Assembly: GCA_043228905.1 (NCBI GenBank)
Contig: JBHGNT010000016.1
Coordinates: 13,268,001-13,332,000 of the forward strand
DNA length: 64,000 bases
DNA from: Azolla caroliniana
Lineage: Eukaryota; Plantae; Polypodiophyta
Direction: 5' to 3'
Shown: positions 1 to 48,800 of the stretch, one piece after another
Position numbering within the stretch: position 1 is the stretch's first letter
Layout: each line of letters opens with the position of its first letter
Program-made: the position numbers and the translations under genes
The notes under the pieces: model-generated
Told to the model about the DNA's origin: nothing
Database searches by the model: none
Seen by the model: the letters and a program-made list of their open reading frames with translations, nothing else

Positions 1-314
1 CGAGAGAGAGAGAAAGAGTGATGATAAGAAAAGAAATATATTATGTGAAGAAAATGTACAGTAGCTAGGAGGCTTAAGACTGGCATTGAACCGATTTGGT
101 TCGAAATAATGCCTTGGGCCTCCTTTTATAGTGTTCTAAGGAATACTCCTGAAGTTTCTAGAATGTTCCAGAGAAATCTGGAATATACATCAATTTTCTA
201 TAATAAAACATAAATGAAAATAATATTCTACATATTATAATGTATAGTCTAATGGTCAAGAGCTCGACCCATGTAGCATAAGGTCATGGGTTCGAGTCTC
301 GCCATATCATGACA
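1..314 (-). repeat. G1 3' LTR (partial)
   Basis: Matches the distal part of 5031-5456 with roughly 10 substitutions and ends in ATGACA. It is followed by ctatcccccc, the PPT on the minus strand. Confidence 0.95.
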
Positions 315-5016: not shown

Positions 5017-5028
5017 AAATCGGTTCAA
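5017..5028 (-). promoter_or_regulatory. G1 primer-binding site, non-tRNA (self-priming type)
   Basis: TTGAACCGATTT lies 2 nt inside the 5' LTR, has no TGG start, and is complementary to the minus-strand LTR sequence at 5228-5239. Confidence 0.8.
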
Positions 5029-5030
5029 AC

Positions 5031-5456
5031 TGTCAGGAACAGTACTAAGACAGAGAAGGAATTAGTACTAAAAGAAGTATTAGTACTAAGAGAGGTGAAG
5101 AACTCTCGAGAGAAGGAAAGAGTGAGTGAGAGGGAGGGAGAGAGAGAGAGAGAGAGAGAGTGATGATAAGAAAAGAAATATATTATGTGAAGAAAATGTA
5201 CAGTAGCTAGGAGGCTTAAGACTGGCGTTGAACCGATTTGGTTCGAAATAATGCCTTGTGCCTCCTTTTATAGTGTTCTAAGGAATACTCCTGAAGTTTC
5301 TAGAATGTTCCAGAGAAATCTGGAATATACATCAATTTTCTAAAATAAAACATAAATGAAAATAATATTCTATGTATTACAATGTATAGTCTAATTGTCA
5401 AGAGCTCGACCCATGTAGCATAAGGTCATGGGTTCAAGTCTTGCCATATCATGACA
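5031..5456 (-). repeat. G1 5' LTR
   Basis: TG...CA ends. TATAAAAG is on the minus strand at 5272-5265. Confidence 0.95.
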
Positions 5457-25985: not shown

Positions 25986-27157
25986 TTAGTGTGGATCTAT
26001 AGTAATTTTTTTTGTGTTAACTAATAAATAGTGTAGATTTTTAGATTTAGTCCTACAAATTATTGGTTTGCGGATGTGTTGTAGTAGAGGGTCTTCTAGG
26101 AGGTTTAAGTGTAGGTTAATAAGGGTTTCTTTTATTCCTAGATTAGGGGCTTGGTGTGTGAATTTAAGTTTAAAGATTATGGGTGTGGGGTTTTGGTTAA
26201 TGGTTTTGTTTGAGTGGAGAGTTGGTCTAAGGGAATAGCGGTGTTTTTTGAATATATTGAGGATAAAGTGTGTAGGGTATCCTCGTGCTCGTAGTCTATT
26301 AAAAAATAGTTGTTGCATTTTTAAATAACCTTGGGTTGTACTTTCTCTAATAATGTATCTTTTAAGTTCATTCGAGAGAAAGCTTTTTTTGACGTGGATA
26401 AGATGTGTCGAGGTGAAGGGTATATATTGGTAAGTATTAAGTTCTTTTTGAAAACAATTAAAGGTGAAACTATTATTATCTAAGTTTATCCAAAGGTCGA
26501 GAAAAGGGAGTTTAGTGAGAGAGGTTTGGATGGTTAGTTTAATGGATTTTTGAGTGGTAATACTATAGAAATTTAGGTAGTCTAAGAGTCTAAGGCATCG
26601 TCAATATATCTCTGAAATAAAATAAATGGGGAGATGGGTTGGCATTCACGAGGTATGACAAAAAAAGGCAAGTATATACTACAGAAAAATTGTTTCTCAT
26701 GGCTACGCTCTCAATTTGTTAATAGATTTGGTTATTAAATTTAGGAAATTGGTAAATTCACAGTTTTGTCCATATTTTCACAGTTTTTTTGGGGGGATGG
26801 AATCTGGCTATCATTTGTAGTGCAAATAATCATATTTCTGAACTCAAAAAAAATACTTTGAAAATACGGAAAAAACTGTGAATTTACCAATTTCCTAAAT
26901 TTAAGGAAGTGATATTCTAAGGTTACAACGCTGAGAGCATAGATGAGGTTGGCTTTTTGTTTTGAGAAATGGGGGGTAATTAGGTGTTTTAGGGTGAGTA
27001 GTCCTAGTTTTGGTGGAATACTCGGGTAGAGGATTTCTACGTCAAAAGAAAAGATGACGCTATTGGGTGGTGTCGTAAGGTTTTCTAGGGATTGTACTAA
27101 GGTATTGTTTTTGTTGTAGGAGTATGGGGAGGAGTTGGTGGTGTAGCCACTTAGAAG
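25986..27157 (-). pseudogene. Penelope-like element reverse transcriptase (5'-truncated, decayed)
   Basis: Motifs FSFDVEILYPSIP, FKFNNQIY*Q..VAM-like (after removing the MITE), FQRYIDDAL, thumb YQYIPFTSTH..KKSFLSNELKRY..RLRARGYP and linker KPII...KNLHYLLV, then a stop. Confidence 0.85.
26744..26895. mobile_element. 152-bp MITE inside the PLE reverse transcriptase
   Basis: 24-bp perfect terminal inverted repeat GGAAATTGGTAAATTCACAGTTTT. 8-bp TSD TAAATTTA at 26736-26743 and 26896-26903. Excision restores the RT frame. Confidence 0.9.
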
Positions 27158-29262
27158 TTTGACCATAAAGTTGACCATGCCTACATTGAATCCCATATCA
27201 ACAATTTCTAGTATTAAAGACTCCTCTCTTCCATACTTCAAATCGGTTTTAACAAAATATTGTGTAGCTCAAAGTGGTTGTATTGAATTGCCAAGATTTA
27301 ATTCAAGGGGAAATTGTAGAAGGAAGTTGTTGTGGGGAAAAAGCATGGGCTTATGTGGAATAAATGCCAAAGAGGATGAAATCTTCTCATTTATTTACGA
27401 AGAGTAAAAGCCAAACTTAGAAGCACTAAAACTGTTGATCTACATATCTAATAAATAGAAAGAGGAGTTGATATTTGTAAGTTCATGTACATAATGGGAA
27501 GGACACATCAAAAGTAGTCTAGGAAACATGAGAATTGAACGGAAGCAACTAGTAACAATGTCTCATGAAGACTTCGTTTGGAACCCTACACAATAACCAT
27601 ATGATATTCTCGAACGAGAGTCAATTGACTCTTAAGGAACATGCCAATGGTCTACCAAGGAGCCACTATACCTTTGGGCTTGCTACAAACTTGCATAACC
27701 AAGAATATGACAATAACATGTTGTTCACTCTTTCATTCACTTAAATTCACCTCCGATTAATTTAGTGAAGAGGTACATGTTGGTACACGCTACTCTCGAA
27801 GCTTCTTTGAGGTGTTTGGAAAACGTGAGTGTCCCACGATTGCTTGACAATTTTGGGGTGTAATCACAAACAACATTGGATTGATTGGCAATGGGTTTAG
27901 GGTTGAACCCATAGATATCAAGGAGTATGGTTGTGATGAGGTTATTATGTTTGATTGTTGATTGGATGAACAATTAATATGCACAAGTGATGCTAGAGGA
28001 ATTTTAGGATACTCTAGGAAGATTTTTAAAATTTTAAAATTTTCATGCACTTTCTAAATTGGAGGTTAATTTGGTCTATTGAATCTTAATATTGGGGATA
28101 TTTTTATTCTTAAAATTAGTGATAAGATTTTTTGTATTTACTGTATTGTATGCTATAAGTCATCAAATACAATAAGCACATCTTATTGTCACATATCACA
28201 CATCATTCAAGTACATATTGTATTGTATGAGTTAACAAATCTTTGATAGAGAACAAATATCTTGTAGATGGTATGCTCATTTGGCCATATGAGGTTAGCG
28301 AAGAGGCTTATGCCACTAATGCACGAGTAGCTGGGAACAATATGTACATGAGCATGCATGGAAAGAAATTTATATGCAATATCCAAAATTCTTAGGTTAT
28401 GCATGTAAATTGAAGAAGGCATTGTATGTATTACCAACAACGAACATGAAGTGCTTAATTACGCATGGATTTGAAATATCATAGTTTGTGTATATGTTAG
28501 TTAGTACAATAGAATCATTCTGATTGTGAATTGTGGGGATGTTTATATCCTTGAATGCTCAAGAGACATCAAACATTTGTTGGAGGGATATATTTAACCT
28601 TTGGTTTGAAGAGAAAGAGAGAAGGATATAGTATCATTGAAGTAGACACATATTGCACAATGCTTAATATGAGGAGTCACGGTATGACAAACATTTTTTT
28701 GTATTTTTTGGGCTTTAAGAAATATATGATGATTAAGTATTCAATTTGTATGATTTCATTATCTTTGTCAGGTAGTTATGTTTATTTGTGTATTTTCTAT
28801 AGTAATAAAATGTATAATAATGAAGCATCATATAGAGCTTTTCATTATTAAAACTTGTGCGTCAAATGACATATTAGTTTTTGCACCCTGATGTCATATG
28901 ACATACATCTTTAAAAAATGCGCGTCAAAAAACTCAACGACTAACCCATCAAATTCAGGCCCTGATTGGCATTACCAAAATGCCATGAAAGAAGCATCCA
29001 GTGACAACCTGGATGGAGAGTTTTCAACCATCCAAAATTAGGATAGTGACGACCTAGATTTATAGTCTTCTTGTATTTTGGGGGAAAGACTTTTCAAGCA
29101 CCTTCACCACATGATCCGGATGTCTTTATCTGTTTTGAGCTAATGATTTGTACTGCTTAATCTGTGGGAGACCCAGTCCTTCTTGTTCTCCAGAAGTATA
29201 CGATCGGTCTAAAAAGACTGACCATTGATTGGGGATGCTTATTCTGCAGTGTGCACTCAGCC

Positions 29263-32200
29263 ATGGAAACTAAGCATTCTTCTTCTTCTTCTCATTATTA
29301 TTGTGCAGAGCAGCTCCTGACTTTGATCACCGCAATGTCATGCTTCCTACTTGAGGCTTTTCTAATCACAACTACTCATGTTGCGGCCGACAGCACAGAC
29401 GACAATTATTACTTCCCTTCCTCGAATGTCAATGGCAATCTCTCCTCTTATTACGAAAACCCAGAATACTATGTCTCCTCTTACAGCGATTTCCAGTTCT
29501 GCAACAACCAAACGCTTCTGCAAGCTCTGAATAATGAGAAGAGGCTGTACGGGCGCACCCTCGACATCAACTCAGCCCACCGTTCGGAATACCCTTACAT
29601 TCTCTACTTTCAGCTCTTCTTCGTCATACCCGCGGACGAGCTCTGCGCAAAAAATAATGGCAGTACCCCATCTTACTACCTGTCTCTCTTGGCATATAAA
29701 GGCTATGGAAAGGCGCAAGACCTGAACAAGGGGCAAGTCGTGTGGACCGCCAATGTGGACAACCCAGTCGGCGAGAACGCGTGCCTGGAGCTCAATGCGG
29801 GTGACACCAATCTCAAGCTTGTCGACTATGATCGGAACGGGCCGGATCGCATTGTGTGGCAGACCAATACATCCACCTCTGCCAATGCATCCCTCACCAT
29901 TACCTTTGAGGGGAACCTGGTCCTCTTCACACACGCTACCCTTACTAATGACTCCAAGTTGACCCAAAACATACTTTGGCAATCTTATGAGCATCCCACC
30001 GACACGCTCATGGTGCTGCAAGCTCTTCGACCCGGATATAATCTCACGGCATCCAGCGATAGTAACAAAACAGCCAACTACACCCTCATGATTGGACCTG
30101 ATGGAACCGTTGCCCTATATGCGAAGATCGGGTATCAATCCCTCTATAGCCATACATCTAATAATAGTGCTGTAAATTATACCAGCTATGAATATCGTTA
30201 TTGGGCTTGGACTCTCAATGGTGCACCCCACACGTCTATTGGAGATACGATGGTGCTGTGCTGGTACCCTACCAACCAAAGCCATCTCCAGTTGGATATG
30301 CTTCCATCAGCGAATAGGTTAGTTGATAATGAATGATGAGTTTTGGAATGTGCGCCATATGGTTATCTATATGAATTGCTCACATATGTTTCAAATTCGC
30401 TATATATATAGATCTCACGTTTCGATCTACACCCAAATCTCTCCGGATGATTGTGGTTCACTGCCTCAAGAATGGAAAGGATTTGTATTTGAGGATAAAG
30501 GAAAGGAGGATGAAGCCAATAACTTGACAATAACATATGGCACATTCCTCAGGCTGGAAAGCGATGGAGACCTTCATGCCTACACACTCAATGACACTAG
30601 ATATCCGAATAGCACCGCAGTTTGGAGGAACTTCTCCAGTCTCTTCTCGATAAATCCATGCAAATTGCCTCTCTTCTGTGGATTCTACGGTGTGTGCCAA
30701 GAAGAGTTCCAAAATTGTTCTTCGGATTGTGGAGGATCACAGACATTTGTGCTTCAGGATCCCACAAACCCTAAATCAGGCTGCAAGCTCAAGGATGATA
30801 GTGAATTGATGGAACCCAACAGTACTACTCTGTCTGATTCAACACTATATCATTCGAAGAATTTTTCCGTCATACAAGGGGCCCATTACTTCTCCAACGC
30901 TTTCCGGTCACCTGACCAGAGAAACATTTCTGCAGAAAACTGCAAGGAGAGTTGTAAGAACCTTTGCTCTTGCACGGCCGCATTCTGGGAGTCATCATCA
31001 TCATCAGGTGGTTCTTGCTTCCTCATCCAAGGTCCTGTTGCCACCATTATAGTAGTGAATGCTTCTGCTACTAAAGCATTTCAGGGATTTTTAAAACTCA
31101 TAGACATCTCTACTCCATCCTCATCCTCATCTCTATTCATCCGAATAGGACTACCAGTATTCGGGGTCATCACAGTTATGGCCATACTGGTAGCTGGATA
31201 TCTGTGCAGGAGAAGAAGACTGCAAGCCAAGAAACTGGAACATCATAACGACATGGAAGCTGAGCTCCTGGGTGCCTCGCTTCAAGGGTCGAAGCCCCGA
31301 CGGTTCACATGGAAAGAGATGCATGAAAACACGTGTGGCTTCTCGGACCATCTCGGGAGTGGTGGCTTCGGCAAAGTCTTCCGGGGGGCTATGGACGATG
31401 GCACGCCCATAGCCGTGAAGCAGCTCAACGGTGAAAGCCAACAGGGTAACAAAGAGTTCATTGCCGAGGTGTCCATTCTGGGCCGCACTCACCACCTTCA
31501 CCTTGTCCGCTTGATCGGCTTCTGCCTCGAAGGTACCATGCACAAGTTCCTCGTGTACGAATACATGGAAAATGGATCCTTGGATGCTTGGATCTTCAGT
31601 AAACCCCACAAAGCTAGGTCAGAGACCGACGAGAGTAGGGAGAACAACCAGCAACCCATCCTAACTTGGGAGAGGCGGTTCGACATAGCCTTGGGTACTG
31701 CCAAAGGCTTGGCATACTTGCACGAGGAGTGTGAGGACAGGGTCATACACATGGATCTCAAGCCACAGAACATACTGCTGGGAGCCGATTTCTTCCCGAA
31801 GATTTCCGATTTCGGGCTGTCCCGAAGAGTGGTGAGAGGTGAAGAGAGCGCAGTGGTGACCATGATGAGGGGGACCCCTGGATACTTGGCGCCCGAATGG
31901 CTAACCGACGGGGCCGTGACCGAGAAGTGCGATGTGTACAGCTACGGAATCCTGCTCCTCGAGATCGTGAGCGGGAGAAGAGTGAGAGATTGGAGAGCAT
32001 TGAGGCAGAAGCTGGACATGAGCCGGAATCTGCACGAGGGATTGAGGGAGCTCGTGGACGAGAGGCTCATGAGCTATGGCGTGGGTGTGGCGAAGAAGAA
32101 GATGTACGATGAGAAACAAGCCATGAGGATGGTGGAGGTAGCCATGATGTGCTTGCGAACCAATCCTGGGAGCCGGCCGAGCATGAGCAGAGTAGTGCAC

Positions 32201-32533
32201 ATGTTGGAAGGGAAGATGGAAGCCATTGCCGTGCATGATGGCCCCAATAGTGAGGATTATCAAGAGATGGGGCTCTTAATTCCTAGCAAGAAGATGAAGG
32301 ATGGAGTAGAGCTAGAGCAAGAGCAGCAGTACAAGCATCATTTCTCGGAAATCCAATGGCCCAATGAGTCTTGGGGATCGGGATCCGGCACCACCTCCAC
32401 TACTACGATGGGCAGGACGAGAAAATCGATATTCAGTGGCAAGACATCGTACAAGTATACGGAGATCTCAAAGTCGGAGGAATACATGGATTCACTACAT
32501 GGGGGTCATACGTACAGAATGAGCAAACAATAA
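29263..32533 (+). CDS. G-type lectin S-domain receptor-like Ser/Thr kinase (SD-2-like, non-RD); join(29263..30317,30412..32533), 1058 aa
   Basis: gccATGG start and hydrophobic N-terminus. B-lectin motifs VVWTAN..NPV, GNLVL and LWQSYEHPTDTL, EGF-like CKLPLFCGFYGVC, PAN CKESCKNLCSC, a TM helix, then kinase GSGGFG, AVKQL, HMDLKPQN, DFG and GTPGYLAPEW. Confidence 0.92.
30318..30411 (+). other. Predicted 94-nt phase-2 intron of the receptor kinase
   Basis: AG/GTTAGT donor, AT-rich body, CTCAC branch-like motif and TATAG/ acceptor. Splicing joins ORFs 29164-30336 and 30323-32533 in frame (N-R-SHV). Confidence 0.8.
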
Positions 32534-38200: not shown

Positions 38201-38279
38201 TGTCAGGAATATTACTACTACTGACAGGGAATTAGTACTAAAAGATGAGGATTAGTACTAAGAAGGGTGCAGATCTCTC

Positions 38280-38315
<36 letters not shown>

Positions 38316-39707
38316 TGATAACAAAGATATATATACTATATGAGGAGAATATACAAGAATAGCTAGGAGGCTTAAGACTGGCATTGAACCGATTTGGTTC
38401 TTAATAATGCCATGTGCCTCTTTTTATAGTGGCTTAGGAATACTCTTGACATTTCTAGAATGTTCCAGAGAAATCTAGAATATACATGGATTTCTTAAAT
38501 GAATAAATAAATAGAAATAATGATCTTCGTATTACAATGTATAGCTTAATGGTAAGGCTTCAACCTATGTGACACAAGGTTATGGGTTCAAATCCTTTTG
38601 AAGCTATACCATGCTCTATCATGACACTATCGGGATTTGGCTTGTCGGGATATCACTGATGAAAGTCCGTAAAACAAACAGAGCATTTACAACATTCTCA
38701 ACTCGTTCCCAAGTATGCTTGCTTGGACTATAGCCTAGCCAATCGACCAAATATCGCTTAAAGCTTGTTGCGAACAATCTTGGAATCGAGGATGGCAACT
38801 ACTTTGTACTCTGGTCCTGATTCAAGCTCGATCGGGGGTGGAGGTGGTGTAATACGATTCGGAATAGTGTTGTCTTGATACGGTTTGAGAAGAGAACTAT
38901 GAAAAACCGGATGTATCCATAGTTGCAGAGGTAGATCGAGACGAAAAGTGACATCATTAATTTTTCCGATAATACTTAAAGGACCTAATCATCGATAATC
39001 CAATTTATCACATGGTTGAGTAGTTTTGATGTGTCGTCGTAATAGCCATACCCGATCTCCAATATTAAAACTGGATGGAAGCCGATGACAATCCACATAA
39101 TCCTTCTGTGTTTGTTGAGCTTGTTGTAAATGAGGAGATAAGTCTGCATGTATCTTGTGTAGCCGTTCCAAACGATCCTCAGCATAAGGATTTGTGGGTA
39201 ACTCCAGAGTTTTGAATACACACCATCGAGGATGATAGCTTGTATAAGCATAAAATGGTGTAACCCTAGTCGATGAGTGGACAAAGTTATTATACAAATT
39301 CGGGAAAGTGGAGAATATCTGCCCAGTCATTTTGTTGATAGCTTAGAAAACAACGAAGATATTGTTCAAGCGTTTGATTTGTTCGTTCTGCTTGTCTGTC
39401 TGTTTGCGGGTGGTAGCCAGAGGAGAGGTTACAAGTGACCTTGAGCATTTTGAAAAGATTCTTCCAAAATTTCGAGAAAAATTGGGGTCCACGGTTGCTG
39501 ATGCCATGATGCCGACATACCTCACGCATGATAGTTTCGACATTCTCTTCACTAGTGATTTCCTTAGTACAAGGCAGAAAATGTGCCATCTTCGTATATT
39601 GATCTACTACTGTTAAGATCACATCCAATCCCTTTGAAACTGGAAGATCTGTGATGGAATCTAGAGAAATGGATTGCCACGACTTTCTCGGAATTGGTAA
39701 TGGTTCT
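38201..39707 (-). mobile_element. Chromovirus copy G3: 3' LTR (38201-38626), chromodomain and integrase; remainder lost
   Basis: The LTR is homologous to those of G1/G2. Integrase ORF pieces lie at 38989-39628. The PPT is deleted and the copy is cut off by the copia LTR at 39708. Confidence 0.92.
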
Positions 39708-41066
39708 TGTTTAGAATCAAGCTCAACCTAATCTAGTGTGTGAACACACCCATGAGAGTCCTTGTGCACTCAAAGGTCAAAAGTCACCACTCTTATCTAC
39801 ACATTAACTATGTGTCATAGAATCATATTCTATGACACATAACTAATGAGTTTCCACATTCCCCATGACCCATGAGCTTTGGTAGTTAATGAAGAGAAAG
39901 AAAGAAAGAAAGAAAGATATATTAACTTCTTCTAAGGCCAAATTTGGCCCATGAGACAATTGGTTTACAACAAAAATGAGTGTTTATCCAATCATCAAAA
40001 CTAAAATAAAAGAAAATAGCTTAAGCTAAGAGAGTTCTAGTAGTGTACAAAACTTTGCACTAAGCCTAATCTCATTTCCACCCAAGTCTCTCAAAAAGAA
40101 GGGGGAGGTCAAAAGTTTTTGGTGTGGGTGTGACCCATGGTCCCGATGCATAGAGTGCCCTAGCCATGGCTTCTAGGCGGTGTAGTTCACGTTCCCTTAT
40201 TTTCTTTATTGCTTCTACATCTCGTCGAGTTGCTTTGAAACCCGACATCCAAGGGCGTTTGGTTCTTCTTTGATTTTTTGCTTCATCAAGGAAAAGCCCG
40301 AGTGGTGTAGGTGTGTCGACATTCATTGTCTCCCCATGTTCCTGAAAAACTTCATTTGTTACATGTTGGTAAACATTAGCAACATTATTATCAATGTTTT
40401 GTAACTTATTCTCTCTGTGTTGTTTCAATTCTAAGATGTATATTCCTAATTTCTTTATATCTAGTGTATCTAATAGTTTAGGGAGGGTGGGAGAGGAACC
40501 AAGTATGTCTTGGTATTTTGCCCTTATCTTGACATAGGTGGGGCATTTGCATGTAAAATGGTACTCATCCTCTACCTCTATGTGGCATAACCTACATATC
40601 CTTTCCTCCCTAGGGACTGTCAGGAATAGTACTAAAACAGAGATGGAATTAGTACTAAGAAGAGTAGTACTATTAGTACTATTAGTACTAAGAGGACGGG
40701 ACTGCGTAAGATTCCCGAGAGAGAGGAAGTGAGAAGAGGAGAGAGAGAGAGAAATAGGATGATGACAGCAGCTCTTATATTATATGAAAAATAAGTACAA
40801 ATCGACTAAGAGGCTTAAGACTGGTGTTGAACCAATTTGGTTCAACATAATGCTTAGTGCCTTCTTTTATAGTGTTCTCAGGAATAATCCTGAAGCTTCT
40901 AGAATGTTCCAGAGAAATCTGGAATATACATTACTTTCTTATAATAAAACATAAATGAAAATAATATTCTATGAATTACAACAGATGGTGAGATGGTTAA
41001 GAGCTCGACCCATATACCATAAGGTCATGGGTTCGAGTCTTGCCATCTCATGACACTATCTCCCCC

Positions 41067-44000
41067 TTAAAGACGACGAGTGGAACGAGTCAGCGCTACT
41101 TGCGGACCGGGTTTGTCCGGATACTTTCGGTGGAAATCAGCAAGAAGATCTTGTGCATTGGCAACATTCTCGACGGGTTCCCAAGTACGTTCACTCGGAC
41201 TATAACCGAGCCAATCGACCAAGTAATAGAGTTTGTTGCGAACAAGTTTGGAATCGAGGATGGCAGCAACTTCATACTCCGGGCCGGCGTCCAACTCCAG
41301 TGGGGGCGGCGGTGGTGTCACACGATCGGGAATGGTGTTTGCTTTATAAGGTTCAAGAAGAGAACAATGGAAAACCGGATGTATCTGAAGCTGCGGAGGG
41401 AGATCAAGGCGGAAGGTGACATCATTAATCTTCCCCGTAATACGGAAAGGACCGAGTCGTCGATAATCCAACTTGTCGCACGGTCGAGTAGTCTTGATGT
41501 GACGACGTAAGAGCCATACTCGATCTCCGATGGCAAAAGAGGAGGGAATCCGATGACGATCCGCATAAGTCTTCTGTGTGTGTTGAGCATGACGAAGGTG
41601 AGTAGAGAGATCCATCTGGATCTTGCGTAGCCTCTCCAAATGATCCTCGGCACGAGGGTTGGTAGGTAGCTCCGGAGTGTCGATCACCGACCAGCGAGGA
41701 TGGAAACCGGTATAAGCGAAAAATGGGGAGACCCGAGTCGAGGAGTGAATAGCATTATTATACGCAAACTCCGCAAAGTGGAGAATCTCGGCCCAATCGT
41801 CCTGTTGATAACTCAGGAAACACCGGAGATATTGCTCCAGCGTTTGGTTTGTTCGTTCCGCCTGTCCGTCGGTTTGAGGATGGTAGCCGGAGGAGAGGTT
41901 GCAGGAGACCTTGAGCATCTTGAAGAGATGCTGCCAAAATTTGGAGACAAATTGCGGGCCTCGGTCACTGATAATACTGTCTGGGAGGCCATGATGCCGA
42001 AAAACCTCACGCATAACAAGAGCGGCGGTTTCCTCGCTAGTGATGGCTTTAGTACATGGCACAAAATGTGCCATCTTCGTATATCGATCGACGACGGTTA
42101 GGATAGCATCGAACCCTTTCGAGACCGGCAGATCTGTGATAAAATCAAGACAAATAGACTGCCATGGCTTACTTGGAATTGGTAAAGGTTCCAACAAGCC
42201 ATATGGATGGTGTCGTGGCATCTTTGCTCGGCAGCAAGCATCACAGGTCCGAACGTAGTCGTCGACAAAACGGCGCATGTGGGGCCACCAAAAAGATCGC
42301 TGCACTAGCTCCAACGTCTTAGTACTACCGAAATGTCCCGCCGTATGGGTGTCGTGACAATGTTGGACAATTTGAAGGCGACAGGAGCAATCGGGGACAT
42401 ATACGCGCTTTTTAAAGAATAACAAGCCATCATGATATTCGAATTGTCGGTAGTCAATACCTGGTTGTTGAGACTGAGAACAGGATGCCCGAGAAGTATC
42501 AATGTGCGCCAGGATGTCTTGAGCAAAACTATCCGTCTTCAAGGTTGCACGTATGTCATCGGTAATCCGTGAATCCATCGGGGTGTGAAAAATCCGCGTC
42601 GTGTGCAATCGTGTTGGTCCCAAGATTACTTGCTTTTGATTATCAAATGTTGCTTCACCAGGACGAGGTGCAAGATATGAACGTCGTGATAGTGCATCTG
42701 CTTTTCCTTGCTGCTTCCCCGGTCGATATGTGATTTTGAAGTCGAAACGCGTGAGGAATTGCGCCCACCGAGCTTGCCGTCGATTTAGTATGCGAGCGTT
42801 CTGAAAATAAGCAAGATTTTTATGATCGCTGAAGACAATGACCTGATGTGGAGAGCCCTCTAAGAAATGCCGCCATTGTATAAATGAATCCACGATGGCT
42901 AATAACTCCTTGTCATGTATTTCGTAGTTGATTTCTGCGACATTGAATTTGCGCGAATGAAAAGCCACCGGATGCAACTCTTCTTTATCACCTTGTTGAG
43001 AAAGGATGCTACCGAGGGCGAAATCTGATGCGTCGGCCTCCATGATGAATGGTTTGCTTGTATCCACATGAGCTAGAATCGGTGCTGATGTAAAGGCTTT
43101 CTTAAGATGCCGAAAAGCCATATCTGCTTCAATGGACCAAAGAAATGCTTGGCCCTTCTTCGTAAGTTGTGTGAGAGGTAAAATAATCTTCGAGTAATCC
43201 TGTATAAACTTACGGTAGAAGTTAGCAAAACCTAGAAAACATTGTACATCTCGTACCGACCGTGGAATTTGCCACTCTAGTACAGTTTGGATCTTAGCTG
43301 GATCCATGGCGATGCCCTTTGAGGAGATGACGTAGCCTAGAAATTCCACTTGCTTGCAGTCAAAGCTACATTTTTCTAGCTTGGCATAAAGACCATTCTC
43401 GCGGAGTCGCTTTAGTACTAATAGTACATGAGAGTCATGCTCTTCCTGGGTCTTCGAATAAATCAACAGATCATCCAGATAAATGATCAAACAGATATCC
43501 AAGAGGTCTCTGAATATATCATTTGCCATGTGTTGGAAGACTGCGGGTGCATTGGTTAGGCCAAACGGCATAACAGTATACTCAAAATGCCCATACCGCG
43601 TGCGAAAAGCGGTCTTCCACTCATCTCCCGGTCGGATCCGCACGAGATTATACGCTCCGCGTAGGTCGATTTTAGTAAAAAACTTGGCACCATTAACTCG
43701 CTCTAAAAGACTTGATATAAGAGGAAGTGCATACCTATTCCGGATGGTGACTTTATTTAATCCGCGGTAATCAACGACAAGACGAAGTGAGCCATCTTTC
43801 TTCTTGACAAAGAAGATGGGTGCACCGGCCGGAGATTTCGAATGACGGATGAACCCGCTTGCCAAGTTCTCCTCTATGTAGGCTCGAAGGACTTCTAACT
43901 CGGTGGGTGACAGGTTGTAAATTGGTCCCCATGGTGGCTCGGTTCCTGGTTGTAAATCGATGGGACAGTCATAGGGACGGTGATGAGGAAGGGTACCGGC

Positions 44001-44639
44001 TTTTACCTTGTCAAATACATCGGCATAAGGATGATATTTTGCCGGAAGTTGTACTGAGGAGTCCTTCTTAATAGTGTTGGAAGGATGTACTGATATGGAA
44101 AATAGGAACATTGCCTCCTTGGGTCCTTCTTCGCGTAGTTGATGGAGTGAAATGGTCGAAACTCGGCGAGTTGATTCTTGGGGTGGTCGATATCGGACTT
44201 CTCTTGTTCTCCAATCTATGGCTGGATTATGTAACTCAAGCCAAGGTAATCCTAGGACAATGGGATGCTCTGGACTACTAATTATATTAAATGATATTAT
44301 ACACACAAAACTACCTAGGACAACTTGAATGGGTTCTGATTCTTCTACAATATTCCCGGAAGCAATGGGACGACCATCAATGACCACTACAGATGCGGGA
44401 CAAGGAAGTTTTCTTAAGGATATCTGAGAAGCTTGGGCAAAATTTCGATCCATGAAACAGGAATTAGCTCCGGAATCTAAAAGTGCTAGGACGGGTACTG
44501 GGGGAGTACTTTTAGTACTAACAATGACTTGGGCTAGGAACACATTGCTAACTTGCTTGGAAGGAATGGAACCACTAATGGGCTGTACAGATCTAGGGCT
44601 GTTGTCCAACCAAATGGCTCCTATTTTGGCTGGACTCAA
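41067..44639 (-). CDS. G2 Pol polyprotein (PR-RT-RNase H-INT-chromodomain), intact, likely expressed by -1 frameshift
   Basis: Uninterrupted 1190-aa ORF with LLDSGA, YLDD, EADASD, CDAC, DFI..SDRG..QAE and a C-terminal chromodomain. Confidence 0.95.
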   Translation of the reverse strand: MSPAKIGAIWLDNSPRSVQPISGSIPSKQVSNVFLAQVIVSTKSTPPVPVLALLDSGANSCFMDRNFAQASQISLRKLPCPASVVVIDGRPIASGNIVEESEPIQVVLGSFVCIISFNIISSPEHPIVLGLPWLELHNPAIDWRTREVRYRPPQESTRRVSTISLHQLREEGPKEAMFLFSISVHPSNTIKKDSSVQLPAKYHPYADVFDKVKAGTLPHHRPYDCPIDLQPGTEPPWGPIYNLSPTELEVLRAYIEENLASGFIRHSKSPAGAPIFFVKKKDGSLRLVVDYRGLNKVTIRNRYALPLISSLLERVNGAKFFTKIDLRGAYNLVRIRPGDEWKTAFRTRYGHFEYTVMPFGLTNAPAVFQHMANDIFRDLLDICLIIYLDDLLIYSKTQEEHDSHVLLVLKRLRENGLYAKLEKCSFDCKQVEFLGYVISSKGIAMDPAKIQTVLEWQIPRSVRDVQCFLGFANFYRKFIQDYSKIILPLTQLTKKGQAFLWSIEADMAFRHLKKAFTSAPILAHVDTSKPFIMEADASDFALGSILSQQGDKEELHPVAFHSRKFNVAEINYEIHDKELLAIVDSFIQWRHFLEGSPHQVIVFSDHKNLAYFQNARILNRRQARWAQFLTRFDFKITYRPGKQQGKADALSRRSYLAPRPGEATFDNQKQVILGPTRLHTTRIFHTPMDSRITDDIRATLKTDSFAQDILAHIDTSRASCSQSQQPGIDYRQFEYHDGLLFFKKRVYVPDCSCRLQIVQHCHDTHTAGHFGSTKTLELVQRSFWWPHMRRFVDDYVRTCDACCRAKMPRHHPYGLLEPLPIPSKPWQSICLDFITDLPVSKGFDAILTVVDRYTKMAHFVPCTKAITSEETAALVMREVFRHHGLPDSIISDRGPQFVSKFWQHLFKMLKVSCNLSSGYHPQTDGQAERTNQTLEQYLRCFLSYQQDDWAEILHFAEFAYNNAIHSSTRVSPFFAYTGFHPRWSVIDTPELPTNPRAEDHLERLRKIQMDLSTHLRHAQHTQKTYADRHRIPSSFAIGDRVWLLRRHIKTTRPCDKLDYRRLGPFRITGKINDVTFRLDLPPQLQIHPVFHCSLLEPYKANTIPDRVTPPPPPLELDAGPEYEVAAILDSKLVRNKLYYLVDWLGYSPSERTWEPVENVANAQDLLADFHRKYPDKPGPQVALTRSTRRL

Positions 44640-45793
44640 TCGTTTAACTCTTCATCTAATTGACTAAGGATTTCAAATTTATTTGAGATACTTGGGCTAT
44701 TAGTACTATGAATACTATCTGACACTCTATTAGTACTATTACTACTATCAGACACTCCGAAGGGAAGAATTGACTCAGGTTTAGTACAGGCAACAATTTG
44801 ATTTACCTGTCTTCTTGGCCTATGGGGACAATTGATGGCGATATGTCCTGGTCCACCGCAATAAAGGCATAATCGATTGGCACGTCGTCGTTGCTTTTCT
44901 TCTTCCGATAACGGGCCGCGTCGACGCATGGTATCGATCTCCATCGGTGTCGAAGTATTTGCTTGAGGTATGTCTCGTGCAAACGGTTTAGCCGCGACTG
45001 CGGCGTAAGTGGGCTCTGGCCTAGAGCGTGGTATCTGTAATTGACGTTCTGAACGCCGTTCAAAAAGGCGGTTGTCACATCGAACTGCTCGACTGATTGC
45101 CTCCGTAAGAGACTTTGGTTCTTCGGGGAAAGTTAGAAGTAGATCTTTGACATCGTTTCGCAAGCCATAGCGAAACTGTTCCATTAGTGCTTGATCATCC
45201 CAGGGTATATCTGAAGCAAGTAGGCGGAAATCCGCCGCGTAGGCAGAGGCTGGACGATCGCCTTGACGCAATCGCCGGATCTTGTTGATCGCCGTCCTGA
45301 TGCTGTCGGTGTCTCCAAAGCAGGCTTTAAACTCACCAATAAAATCTTCAAAGTTATTAAGCAAGGGCGATTGTTTTTCTAGAAGCGGAGCGAACCATGC
45401 CAAGGCTGAGCCGCTAAGTAGCGTGCCTATTAGGCCGACTCGAGATGCATCAGTGGGATATCGGGAAGGATGCATCTGGATGACTAAGCGTACCTGATTA
45501 AGGAATCCCCGAAATTGCGAACGCGTTCCATCAAATTACACAGGAAGTCCAATCTTGGGCTCTTTATGAAATCCTTGGGGACTGGATCCTTGTTGTTGCA
45601 ACGCTGCTTCGAGTTGTTGTACCCGTAACGCTAACTCCCCATGTTGTTGTTGCGTTTGTTGTTTTTCTAGAGCGATTTGTTGCAGATCCCCTATCAGCCG
45701 TTGGTTTTCTTGTTCCAAGGCAACAAACTTTTCTTTTAGGCACTGTAGCTCGGAGAAAACGGATTGGTATTCTTGGGCGCTAACAGTAGCCAT
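44636..45793 (-). pseudogene. G2 gag with a single in-frame TAA (45536-45538)
   Basis: IGLPV*FDGTRSQ versus IGLPTEFDGTRSQ in G1. The knuckle CLYCGGPGHIAINC is intact. Confidence 0.9.
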
Positions 45794-45848
45794 AGTATAG
45801 GGGAAAGGGTAGGAAGATGAGGGAGAGTGACAAGTAGGCTAGAGGAAG

Positions 45849-45860
45849 AAATTGGTTCAA
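45849..45860 (-). promoter_or_regulatory. G2 self-priming-type PBS
   Basis: TTGAACCAATTT lies 2 nt inside the 5' LTR and is complementary to the minus-strand LTR sequence at 46072-46083. Confidence 0.82.
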
Positions 45861-48800
45861 ACTGTCAGGAATAGTACTAAAACAGAGATGGAATTAGTAC
45901 TAAGAAGAGTAGTACTATTAGTACTATTAGTACTAAGAGGACGGGACTGCGTAAGACTCCCGAGAGAGAGGAAGTGAGAAGAGGAGAGAGAGAGAGAAAT
46001 AGGATGATGACAGCAGCTCTTATATTATATGAAAAATAAGTACAAATCGACTAAGAGGCTTAAGACTGGTGTTGAACCAATTTGGTTCAACATAATGCTT
46101 AGTGCCTTCTTTTATAGTGTTCTCAGGAATAATCCTGAAGCTTCTAGAATGTTCCAAAGAAATCTGGAATATACATTACTTTCTTATAATAAAACATAAA
46201 TGAAAATAATATTCTATGAATTACAACAGATGGTGAGATGGTTAAGAGCTCGACCCATATACCATAAGGTCATGGGTTCGAGTCTTGCCATCTCATGACA
46301 GGGACTCCGTTAGTACGTCCATTCTCAATCTCAAGTTGGTGAGATGATATTCTAAGTTGACCAATGGCAAACATTAGTGCATGTGGTAAGAATACATCTA
46401 GATATCTTGGTTGCGTGATAAAACCTAACTTAGAGAACTGCATAAAGTGTTCCTTATAGTACGACATTTTAGATGGGAGTGGCTCTAGTGGGGTGATCCA
46501 TTTATACTGAGTATAAATTTTCCATATTTCTTGGCGTATTACTTTATTACGGTCCTCATGAGAGATTAAAGTGTTATCAGTCGTGTGGTCGTACTTAAGG
46601 GGGGGGAGGTTATTAATGTCTAGACCGTTGGCAAGAAGCGAACTCACCATCATGCCATACCATCAGCTAGTATAGTTGGACTCATACAATGCTCGAGAAG
46701 CCTTAAAGGCTTGATGGGATATTCTATCAAGTGGTTGGTTATGTATCTTGTGGATAAAGACTACAAGTTGAAAAAGTGCTTCTACTAACATAGGGGGTAG
46801 AGTGAACTCAACCCTAATAATGTCATGTGGGACCGATGATTTGCTTCGGAGTTGGCGTGATAACATCATCACCAATGGTCTCTCTAATTGTGTCCACATG
46901 AAAGATGGTAGTCCTGGAGCCCAAACCGTTGATGCATACATGAGAGAGGGAGTCACTAATGAGTCAAGGAGCCACCCTTTAGTTCGTGGCTCTTGGAAGT
47001 ATGCTTGGTGGCATTGTCTCTCGAGGAGTGAGAGGGATGCATGTCCTCTTGTAAGTCTATCCTTTGCTGCTTGTGTCATCGAAAATTTACCTGAGCGGGC
47101 ACTGAAAGTGACTCCGAGAGAGAGAGTGACTATATAAAGCACTCTCCTCCTACTTTGTAATTAGTTCGGTTAATCTCCTTTGTAATATATATCTTTTTGA
47201 GTATTCTATTGTCTCTCCAATCTATCTATCTTGTGTTTCTCTCTCTCTCTCTCTCTCTCTCTCATACACACACTCACAACACATATCGCTAATCTATTCC
47301 GCTGCACAAGAATCACCATCGATTCTTTCCATGGTATCAGAGCGGTTTGGTAGTTCGATCTATAGCCCATTCACATGTGTTGAGCTCTACGCCGACGTTC
47401 AAGAAGAACCGGCTCATCGCAATCGTAGTGCGACTACATAGCTCGTATTCAAGAGAGAAGAAGAAGGAAGAAATCTACATCGAACACCATGAATACTCAA
47501 ATCGGGAGCACTCTCCCTAGCGAGAAGTTGGACCGAAACAACTTCGCATATTGGGAGTACAAGATGCACCAATACCTTGTCGGTCAAGGTTATTGGGGCT
47601 ACATCAAAGGAGCACAAGATAACTGGCCCAATCCGAAAGACGCCGACTACGCAACATGGGAGCAAGTGGCGAGTTGAGTAATGTATTTCTTGGCGACATG
47701 TGTACACGAGCACATGCTCAGCTACATTCGAGAAGCCGAGACGCCGAAGGAAGCGTGGGAGAATCTACGAAAGATTTTCGCCACCAACACAACCGCGAGG
47801 AAGCTTCAACTCCGCCAAGAGTTGAACAACATCCAACAAAGGGATATGTCCATCACAAGCTACACCTTGAAGATCAAGGAGCTTTGTGATGCACTTGGCT
47901 CAATAAGCGTCAATGTGGAGGATGACGAAATGGTGCAAATATGCCTCGTCGGCCTTGCACCATGGTTCAGTACGATGCGGACCACCGTACTAGCACGGGA
48001 GAATCCGCCCTCCTTCGTCGATCTTTAATCCATGTTATTGGTCGATGAGAATCATGTTCAAACAAAGAGCAACGCCTTGGAAGGCCACATGCTCTACACG
48101 CATTCAAATGGAAGAAGAGGACGTGCCCAAGCAAGAGGTCAATTCGGCCAAGGACGAGGCGACGAATGAGGTCCGACTTATGACAAGAACTCCCAATTTT
48201 GTCAACAAGATGGAAGCCATTGAGGAACCTTTAGAAGAAGGGGGAGCTCCCATTCCGGTCTGAGTTGACAAAACTCAATCGAATGCAGATATTGCGGAAA
48301 TATCGGCCACCACGAAGAAGAGTGCCGAAAGAAGATGCGTGAGTCGGCTTCCTCAAGCCGACAACTCACAAATTACGCCACCAATTGTGATTATGAAGAC
48401 CTTGGCGGAATGTTCGTGATGAGACATAGAGCAAATTCTATGTCGGGCTCTACTTCGACTAATGCCTCCAATCCAGAAGATGTATGGTTTGTCAACTCTG
48501 GTGCTTCGAACCATATGACATCCCATCAAGAATGGTTCTAAGACTTGCGGGAGACGGATCGACCTAGTTATGTCGAGACTAGAGATGACACCATTCATTG
48601 TATTTGATTTATTGGCAATGTCCCATTTGGGAAAGACGGCGAACAAACTTGCATAAAAAATGTCTTATATGTACCCACCATGACGAATAATTTGGTCTCC
48701 GTCGGCCAAATTGTGGAGCAAGGGATGCAAATTTGATTCAACCAAGGTGGTTGCTTCATCGAGAAGGAAGGTTGACTCATCGCTCGGGGTCGAAGGGAAG

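Follow-up and report, generated by a model that had tools for sequence, protein, structure and literature searches.

A clade of Ty3/gypsy chromoviruses carries, at the start of U3 in its long terminal repeats (LTRs) and antisense to the element, a box A and a box B at tRNA spacing. Comparison of the bases across families indicates that this module is tRNA derived and has been selected for promoter-type bases rather than for an RNA fold. Our preferred reading, to which we give roughly even credence, is that the module binds TFIIIC and protects the 5' LTR as a boundary or roadblock.

The box pair in the window

The window, the 64-kb stretch of plant DNA analyzed here, is crowded with LTR retrotransposons, which surround a single lectin receptor kinase gene. 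A single minus-strand chromovirus family accounts for five LTR copies (two in G1, one in G3, and two in G4; Table 1). G4 is a 5.7-kb coding element with two differences between its LTRs, a gag with an in-frame stop, and an open pol of 1,194 aa. The order of its pol domains, PR-RT-RH-INT-SH3-Chromo, is that of Ty3/gypsy elements with a C-terminal chromodomain, and the cage positions of this chromodomain, judged by eye, are all aromatic (Y, W, and Y). Named protein matches are fungal, fish, frog, and algal, at 41 to 48% identity. Elsewhere in the window, the lectin gene (29161-32533) encodes, across two overlapping frames, a G-type lectin S-domain receptor kinase whose named relatives all lie at 52% or below in the kinase domain, and an inverted repeat of 56 bp (26735-26904; 93% complementary) lies within an AT-rich stretch.

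Table 1. Features of the chromovirus family in the window
Feature	Position	Strand	Basis or remark
G1 3' LTR module	245..299	+	Score 18/19
G1 3' LTR	Starts at 314	-	Cut by window edge
G1 primer-binding site	5017..5028	-	Complement of R start 5228-5239
G1 5' LTR	5031-5456	-	One of the five family copies
G1 5' LTR module	5387..5441	+	Score 17/19
G3 3' LTR (TG...CA)	38201..38626	-	Decayed copy, 5'-truncated, PPT degraded
G3 12-nt self-primer, inferred R start	38384..38395	-	Sequence complement
G3 TATA box	38422..38428	-	33 nt ahead of inferred transcript start
G3 box A (tRNA positions 8-19)	38542..38552	+	Motif score
G3 long hairpin over module	38548..38612	+	Folding z; window's subclade only
G3 variable-loop motif AGGTY (tRNA positions 44-48)	38577..38581	+	Conservation
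G3 box B (tRNA positions 52-62)	38585..38595	+	Motif score
G3 T4 run, possible Pol III terminator	38596..38599	+	Motif; subfamily-specific
G3 integrase/SH3/chromodomain remnant, fragmented	38620..39706	-	tblastn
G4 element	40618..46300	-	LTRs 45863-46300 and 40618-41055; 5-bp target duplication
G4 3' LTR module	40986..41040	+	Box A 40986-40996, box B 41030-41040; score 17/19
G4 chromodomain	41124..41276	-	PF00385, E 1.3e-13
G4 primer-binding site	45849..45860	-	Complement of own R start 46072-46083, not a tRNA end
G4 5' LTR module	46231..46285	+	Box A 46231-46241, box B 46275-46285; score 17/19

Box A, box B, and the TTTT run of G3 all lie where the original prediction had placed them, on the plus strand at the start of U3, antisense to the minus-strand chromovirus and 32 to 85 nt in from the LTR start. 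The claimed tRNA spacing also holds, with a T8-to-T54 distance of 45 nt, the standard tRNA value. The A+B motif used for scoring is textbook knowledge; it is degenerate and consistent with the Rfam tRNA line. G3 scores 19/19, a value matched by 0 of 60 dinucleotide shuffles (shuffle mean, 12.2), and two real plant tRNA genes of locus L022 score 19 and 17 by the same measure. Across both strands of the window, scores of at least 17 are confined to the five LTR copies, with seven background sites at 16. The G3 box pair is beyond chance. Judged as a type 2 Pol III promoter, the module has both boxes at tRNA spacing, with G10 as its weak position. The variable-loop motif was absent from the original prediction and also lies outside the search score. 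Both LTRs of G1 and of G4 carry the module, and second LTR copies were also found in L013, L014, L015, and L018. In the 5' LTR of G4, the module points toward the host flank.

Distribution and conservation of the module

Relatives were fetched by protein similarity with the SH3-chromodomain region, the LTR not being used. Metagenomes contributed 76 loci (best 80 of 274 matches), and a further 14 came from genome bins. The LTR start was located in 74 of the 90 loci (71 by pattern and 3 by hand), four of which were too short; the remaining 70 loci and the five window copies formed a clade of 53 LTRs and an outgroup of 22. The clade loci come throughout from one single series of assemblies, in which contigs of high coverage represent collapsed repeats. 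Copies of the family are very numerous: in one run, 1,387 contigs aligned to a single 79-nt stretch. The genome-bin loci (L078 to L091) are 14 contigs in prokaryotic bins with chromovirus integrase ends and are probably eukaryotic contamination. A search of viral contigs for relatives returned nothing useful, and two runs guessed to be RNA (X23 and X24) gave 9 and 0 contigs, which has no bearing either way on expression.

A module score of at least 15 in the first 150 nt, antisense, was reached by 49/53 clade LTRs (each p <=0.033 and above shuffles) and by 0/22 outgroup LTRs; the clade LTRs missing the module are L023, L038, L047, and L067. When the scan was widened to as much as 450 nt on both strands, 1/21 outgroup LTRs got to 15. 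Box spacing is 45 to 46 nt in 48/49 module-bearing LTRs, although 43 to 49 nt was permitted, and the extra base sits in the D-loop, as it does in tRNAs. Box B itself lies 11 to 63 nt from the end of the LTR, and box spacing that stays fixed beside this variation counts for the TFIIIC reading. In a noncircular test anchored on box A and the variable loop, GTTCRA occurred at the expected place in 43/53 clade LTRs versus 0/22 outgroup LTRs. A tree built from 28 representatives with the module and 13 from the outgroup places a single origin of the module with support of 98/92.

Conservation was computed over 21 families (80% clusters), leaving out the degenerate L023, L038, and L067. The majority-base fraction is 0.71 in box A, 0.90 at positions 44 to 48, and 0.81 in box B, versus 0.57 in the anticodon arm and 0.42 to 0.50 in the flanks; conservation of the boxes and their spacing above the flanks, proposed earlier as a check, is thereby borne out. 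At 40 four-fold degenerate codon sites of the adjacent gene, the mean is 0.56. Values of at least 0.9 occur in 12/14 tRNA-invariant and variable-loop columns and at 0/40 four-fold sites. Since the four-fold sites are not fully saturated, part of the shared sequence reflects descent. Among 20 amplified or window families, G46, T47, G53, T54, T55, C56, and A58 are invariant (20/20), and box A retains R9 (20/20), Y11 (19/20), A14 (18/20), G18 (18/20), and G19 (19/20), while N12 and N59 are unconstrained, with all four bases seen. Positions 49 to 51 tolerate transversions. This base-by-base pattern matches the DNA consensus of type 2 Pol III promoters, which counts for the TFIIIC reading. Two observations count against it: G10 of box A departs from the textbook form and is kept in just 8/20 of these families, and the most conserved block of the module, the variable loop at positions 44 to 48, lies outside the usual box B and answers to no obvious promoter requirement.

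Decay of the box B CpG is directional. C56 is unchanged, and its CpG partner G57 has become A, the form that the consensus permits, in 13/30 families with no case of the reverse decay, through about six separate changes on the tree as counted by eye. The CpG-type pair at positions 48 and 49 decays in both directions (16 and 6 of 30 families), although the contrast between the two pairs, drawn from related families, is not significant on its own (Fisher p = 0.064). The box B core is intact in 34/35 contigs with coverage of at least 5 versus 7/13 below that level (p = 0.0008), a contrast that is supporting evidence only, because old single copies decay throughout.

That a tRNA gene or SINE head gave rise to the module, as was originally suggested, is supported. 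It is improbable that U3 harbors a neutral remnant of a SINE or tRNA, that the likeness arose by chance, or that the module serves an unrelated DNA-binding factor. Such readings would accommodate the incomplete saturation of four-fold sites (0.56), the lack of tRNA calls at default thresholds, and the weak match of the module profile to the two real tRNAs of L022 (E 0.48 and 0.76). However, the invariant bases sit exactly at tRNA-invariant positions and at tRNA spacing, while flanks, stems, and synonymous sites drift, and the box-B-free anchoring and the four-fold comparison already contradict a relic or chance origin, which is largely refuted. With respect to the source isotype, the anticodon arm shares 6.1 and 3.9 of 18 positions with the two L022 tRNAs, which identifies none. 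These tRNA genes (Asn and Thr; L022:553-626 and 832-905) lie about 150 bp from a 5'-truncated clade element, an arrangement found in none of 59 other loci scanned. No free full SINE copy of the module occurred in the 456 kb searched, where the one partial box B match belongs to L040. There, a partial tRNA-like stretch (L040:270-330; variable loop and box B) lies behind a GA repeat, outside any recognized LTR start, and may be a decayed SINE.

A second antisense A/B module of different sequence occurs inside pol in one subfamily (L008, L010 to L012, L014, and L015). It lies in frame within the protease-RT linker, to which it adds about 17 to 20 residues (e.g., L015:2950-3010). Seven linkers in these six loci score 16 to 18, while the other 27 are all below 16; the top score is 18, and block shuffles over all loci yield 0 to 2 matches at 17. 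The boxes are kept across four variants, one of which has a T5 run between them.

Folding, termination, and priming

The module does not pair as a tRNA gene would. Paired fractions are 0.27 in the acceptor, 0.40 in the D, 0.26 in the anticodon, and 0.43 in the T stem, and all four stems of the cloverleaf pair at the row-permuted null level. At default thresholds, ARAGORN called 0 tRNAs in the window and Rfam none at the module. A functional tRNA was also rejected across 60 loci, in which ARAGORN called no module. Relaxed tRNA calling, advised in the original prediction and run here with ARAGORN, returned 0/30 modules at 90%, 6/30 at 80%, and 17/30 at 70%, with inconsistent isotypes and without a shuffled control. 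The 9-bp complement between 38539-38547 and 38601-38609, followed by CA, is indeed present in G3; it takes up box A bases and hence cannot be the tRNA acceptor stem that it was thought to be. Nor is the stem with CCA a family trait, as it is absent from G1 and G4 and broken in the close relative L017. TTTT after box B, correct for G3, does not extend clade-wide: T4 immediately follows box B (position 63) in just 5/30 family representatives, the G3 group. The self-contained cassette of acceptor stem, CCA, and terminator that had been envisaged is confined to G3 or its subfamily.

Hairpins are likewise restricted. Folding z scores run from -2.2 to -6.3 in G1, G3, G4, L007, L017, and L025; over 29 representatives, z is -2 or lower in 7 and above -1.4 in 22. 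A conserved RNA hairpin was rejected as the selected unit, the clade's best helix excess (0.15) equaling the permuted maximum (0.15), and a Pol III microRNA unit of the foamy virus type, a conserved hairpin ending in a T-run, was not found. The G4 hairpin (window 40986-41050) is four pairs longer at the expense of the canonical A14, which most relatives keep; this extension could be palindrome correction instead of selection.

These data bear on whether the boxes drive Pol III with antisense RNA as the useful product, which we consider unlikely. If started in the 3' LTR, such an RNA would read into the PPT and the integrase end; in the window's subclade it would contain a 25-bp hairpin, and its role would be to tune element activity or supply small-RNA pathways. 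Box A and the box spacing, both needed for initiation, are retained, the hairpin is strong in the six members named above, T4 comes straight after box B in the G3 group, and the captures in U3 and pol are both antisense. In G1, module variants at 3% or more are confined to tRNA positions 36, 37, 39, and 41, on the loop side of the hairpin, and position 48 (four runs from four coded organisms, with rare variants dropped by contigs). The U3 of foamy viruses provides a reported precedent (PMC3993851). An antisense product is harder to reconcile with the 22/29 representatives whose z exceeds -1.4 and with the position of the first T4, which ranges from 63 to past 600 where such a run exists at all, leaving no common end. 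Terminator avoidance was rejected as well: T4 is scarce inside modules (3 versus 6.7 shuffled), but A4 is similarly scarce (4 versus 8.3), such that the scarcity is not strand-specific. Stems at the null level, no common helix, no common terminator, and a T5 run between boxes favor a role at the DNA level.

The primer-binding sites indicate that the clade self-primes in the manner of Tf1. A 12-nt complement between R and a primer-binding site just past the 5' LTR is present in 10/16 clade entries examined, in five covarying versions, and four of the six entries without it had less than 600 nt upstream of gag. The G1 site carries a compensatory change relative to that of G4, and shorter R/PBS complements are present in outgroups. 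A TATA box lies 32 to 37 nt upstream of the 12-nt self-primer sequence. Given self-priming and the TATA box, the module is neither primer nor promoter of the genomic RNA, from which it faces away. Two further candidates were rejected: a self-encoded tRNA primer, as the primer-binding site pairs with the element's own R start, and a constant interval between box A and the start of Pol II transcription, which ranges from 147 to 240 nt in the 13/30 representatives with a placeable start.

An alternative that we doubt is that the U3 start of the genomic RNA docks a host tRNA through its D and T arms, thereby aiding dimerization, packaging, or strand transfer. The bipartite primer site of Ty3, also a Ty3/gypsy element, reportedly has a 3' part in U3 whose sequence complements the T and D arms of a tRNA (PMC5371799), and the present module has the same place and orientation in U3. 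It also has two conserved blocks (14 to 23 and 44 to 61, the variable loop included), and G57-to-A would leave a tolerated G-U pair. However, transversions at 49 to 51 and the four bases at 59 would break the duplex, G53 is never replaced by A (30/30) though wobble would permit it, and the degenerate R9 and Y11 are retained outside both blocks. Ty3 primes with that tRNA, whereas the five covarying versions of the 12-nt pairs leave the present clade in no need of a tRNA primer, and its substitutions fit a promoter consensus over a duplex.

Other features of these LTRs were noted between the module and the transcript start. In several families, the sequence immediately ahead of the inferred transcript start repeats the self-primer end in inverted form; the copies in the window (38384-38402, 40827-40845, and 5228-5246) can each also be read as a lone box B core. 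At the 3' end of the RNA, such a copy could make the second R inaccessible to the primer site. Repeated TTCTAGAA-type palindromes lie between module and TATA box (38450-38482 and 40888-40917) in most clade LTRs and form a conservation peak in related organisms; we take them to resemble heat-shock elements.

A candidate chromatin boundary and its precedents

Under the boundary or roadblock reading, an ancestor of the clade would have captured one tRNA gene or tRNA-SINE head in U3, and host TFIIIC would bind the module as DNA. TFIIIB would probably join TFIIIC, because box A and the spacing are kept. The reading fits an element whose chromodomain would target heterochromatin. The complex on the 5' LTR, positioned between host flank and TATA box some 150 to 240 nt from the start site, may act as a barrier to silent chromatin or to read-through Pol II; lineages losing the module would then amplify less. 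Counting against a barrier, Pol II transcribing the element itself would run into the copies in the 3' LTR and in pol. More broadly, and tentatively, the clade may carry a portable tRNA-gene insulator, captured in U3 and, in one subfamily, in pol, which would use host TFIIIC and TFIIIB to separate the element's promoter from the silent chromatin that its chromodomain would lead it into.

The most likely working analogues are the B2 SINE boundaries of mouse and the tDNA/ETC roadblocks of yeast. TFIIIC has been reported at chromatin boundaries, where B2 SINEs set tRNA-type boxes against an opposing TATA/Pol II promoter (PMC8136502), and Pol III complexes at yeast tDNA and ETC sites are described as halting Pol II read-through (PMC4228148). 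The reported barrier and Pol II-block activities of tRNA-type boxes are thus from mouse and yeast; our literature search found no demonstration of a TFIIIC barrier in plants. Those sites are host loci or free SINEs, whereas the present module belongs permanently to the LTR and is inherited and copied with it at each replication.

Pol III promoters are already known from the LTRs of nonautonomous Cassandra and Helenus elements and from foamy viruses. Cassandra, named in the original prediction, is a correct comparison in that a Pol III internal promoter is conserved in its plant LTRs; it differs in having a 5S (type 1) promoter, being nonautonomous, and transcribing itself (PMC7215508, PMC10886601). 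Closer precedents are the tRNA-derived boxes of Helenus LTRs and the Pol III units in foamy virus U3. Helenus TRIMs (TRIMp3) are reported to have tRNA-derived sequence in both LTRs with only boxes A and B conserved, no working tRNA, and no role as primer, as seen here, and a SINE insertion into the LTR has been proposed as its origin (Kojima 2024, PMC10886601). They are described as nonautonomous, 311 to 1,263 bp, and tRNA primed, with boxes proposed to transcribe the element (PMC10886601). The present element shares with them the boxes in both LTRs; unlike Helenus, it is neither short and noncoding nor tRNA primed and Pol III transcribed, being a coding chromovirus of 5.7 kb that has a TATA promoter, self-primes, and carries boxes that face outward. 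According to the passages of that paper considered here, autonomous partners would probably not have such LTR sequence in common with TRIMs, and "not a few" Repbase LTRs resemble parts of tRNAs, with TRIMs alone analyzed (PMC10886601); unreported autonomous cases may therefore exist. Foamy virus LTRs are reported to place Pol III boxes and hairpins in the U3 of an autonomous retroelement, in units defined by a hairpin and terminator with small RNAs shown (Kincaid 2014, PMC3993851). The present module, in contrast, follows tRNA numbering and lacks a clade-wide hairpin or terminator.

By domain order, aromatic cage, and self-priming, the three features on which likeness was judged, the present element resembles the Tcn1 type. 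Tcn1 and Tf1/Sushi elements are reported to share with it a caged chromodomain, the lack of a tRNA primer site, predicted self-priming (Tf1-type in Tcn1; PMC6317226), and LTRs of about 440 bp with a TATA box; a tRNA-like LTR module is not mentioned in the passages of these papers considered here (PMC6317226, PMC2864245). Among plants, caged chromodomains are reported in non-seed plants only (PMC6317226), which makes a non-seed plant the likely host. The 22 related LTRs outside the present clade are, unlike those within it, without the module. In the literature covered, with subscription journals and Repbase reports outside its scope, we found no Pol III promoter in an autonomous LTR retrotransposon. 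A tRNA-like sequence in U3 is said to have been described in a study of HIV.

Pol III promoter capture, which drives transcription in nonautonomous TRIMs, would extend with this module to autonomous elements, in which its role must be another. The module provides a specific, mutable cis-element for testing how chromoviruses stay active after insertion into heterochromatin, and through it TFIIIC boundary activity would for the first time become approachable in plants. Were the clade to carry a portable insulator, very many new TFIIIC sites would be scattered through the host genome. A family this abundant could be a main source both of TFIIIC sites in its hosts and of spurious tRNA-like calls there.
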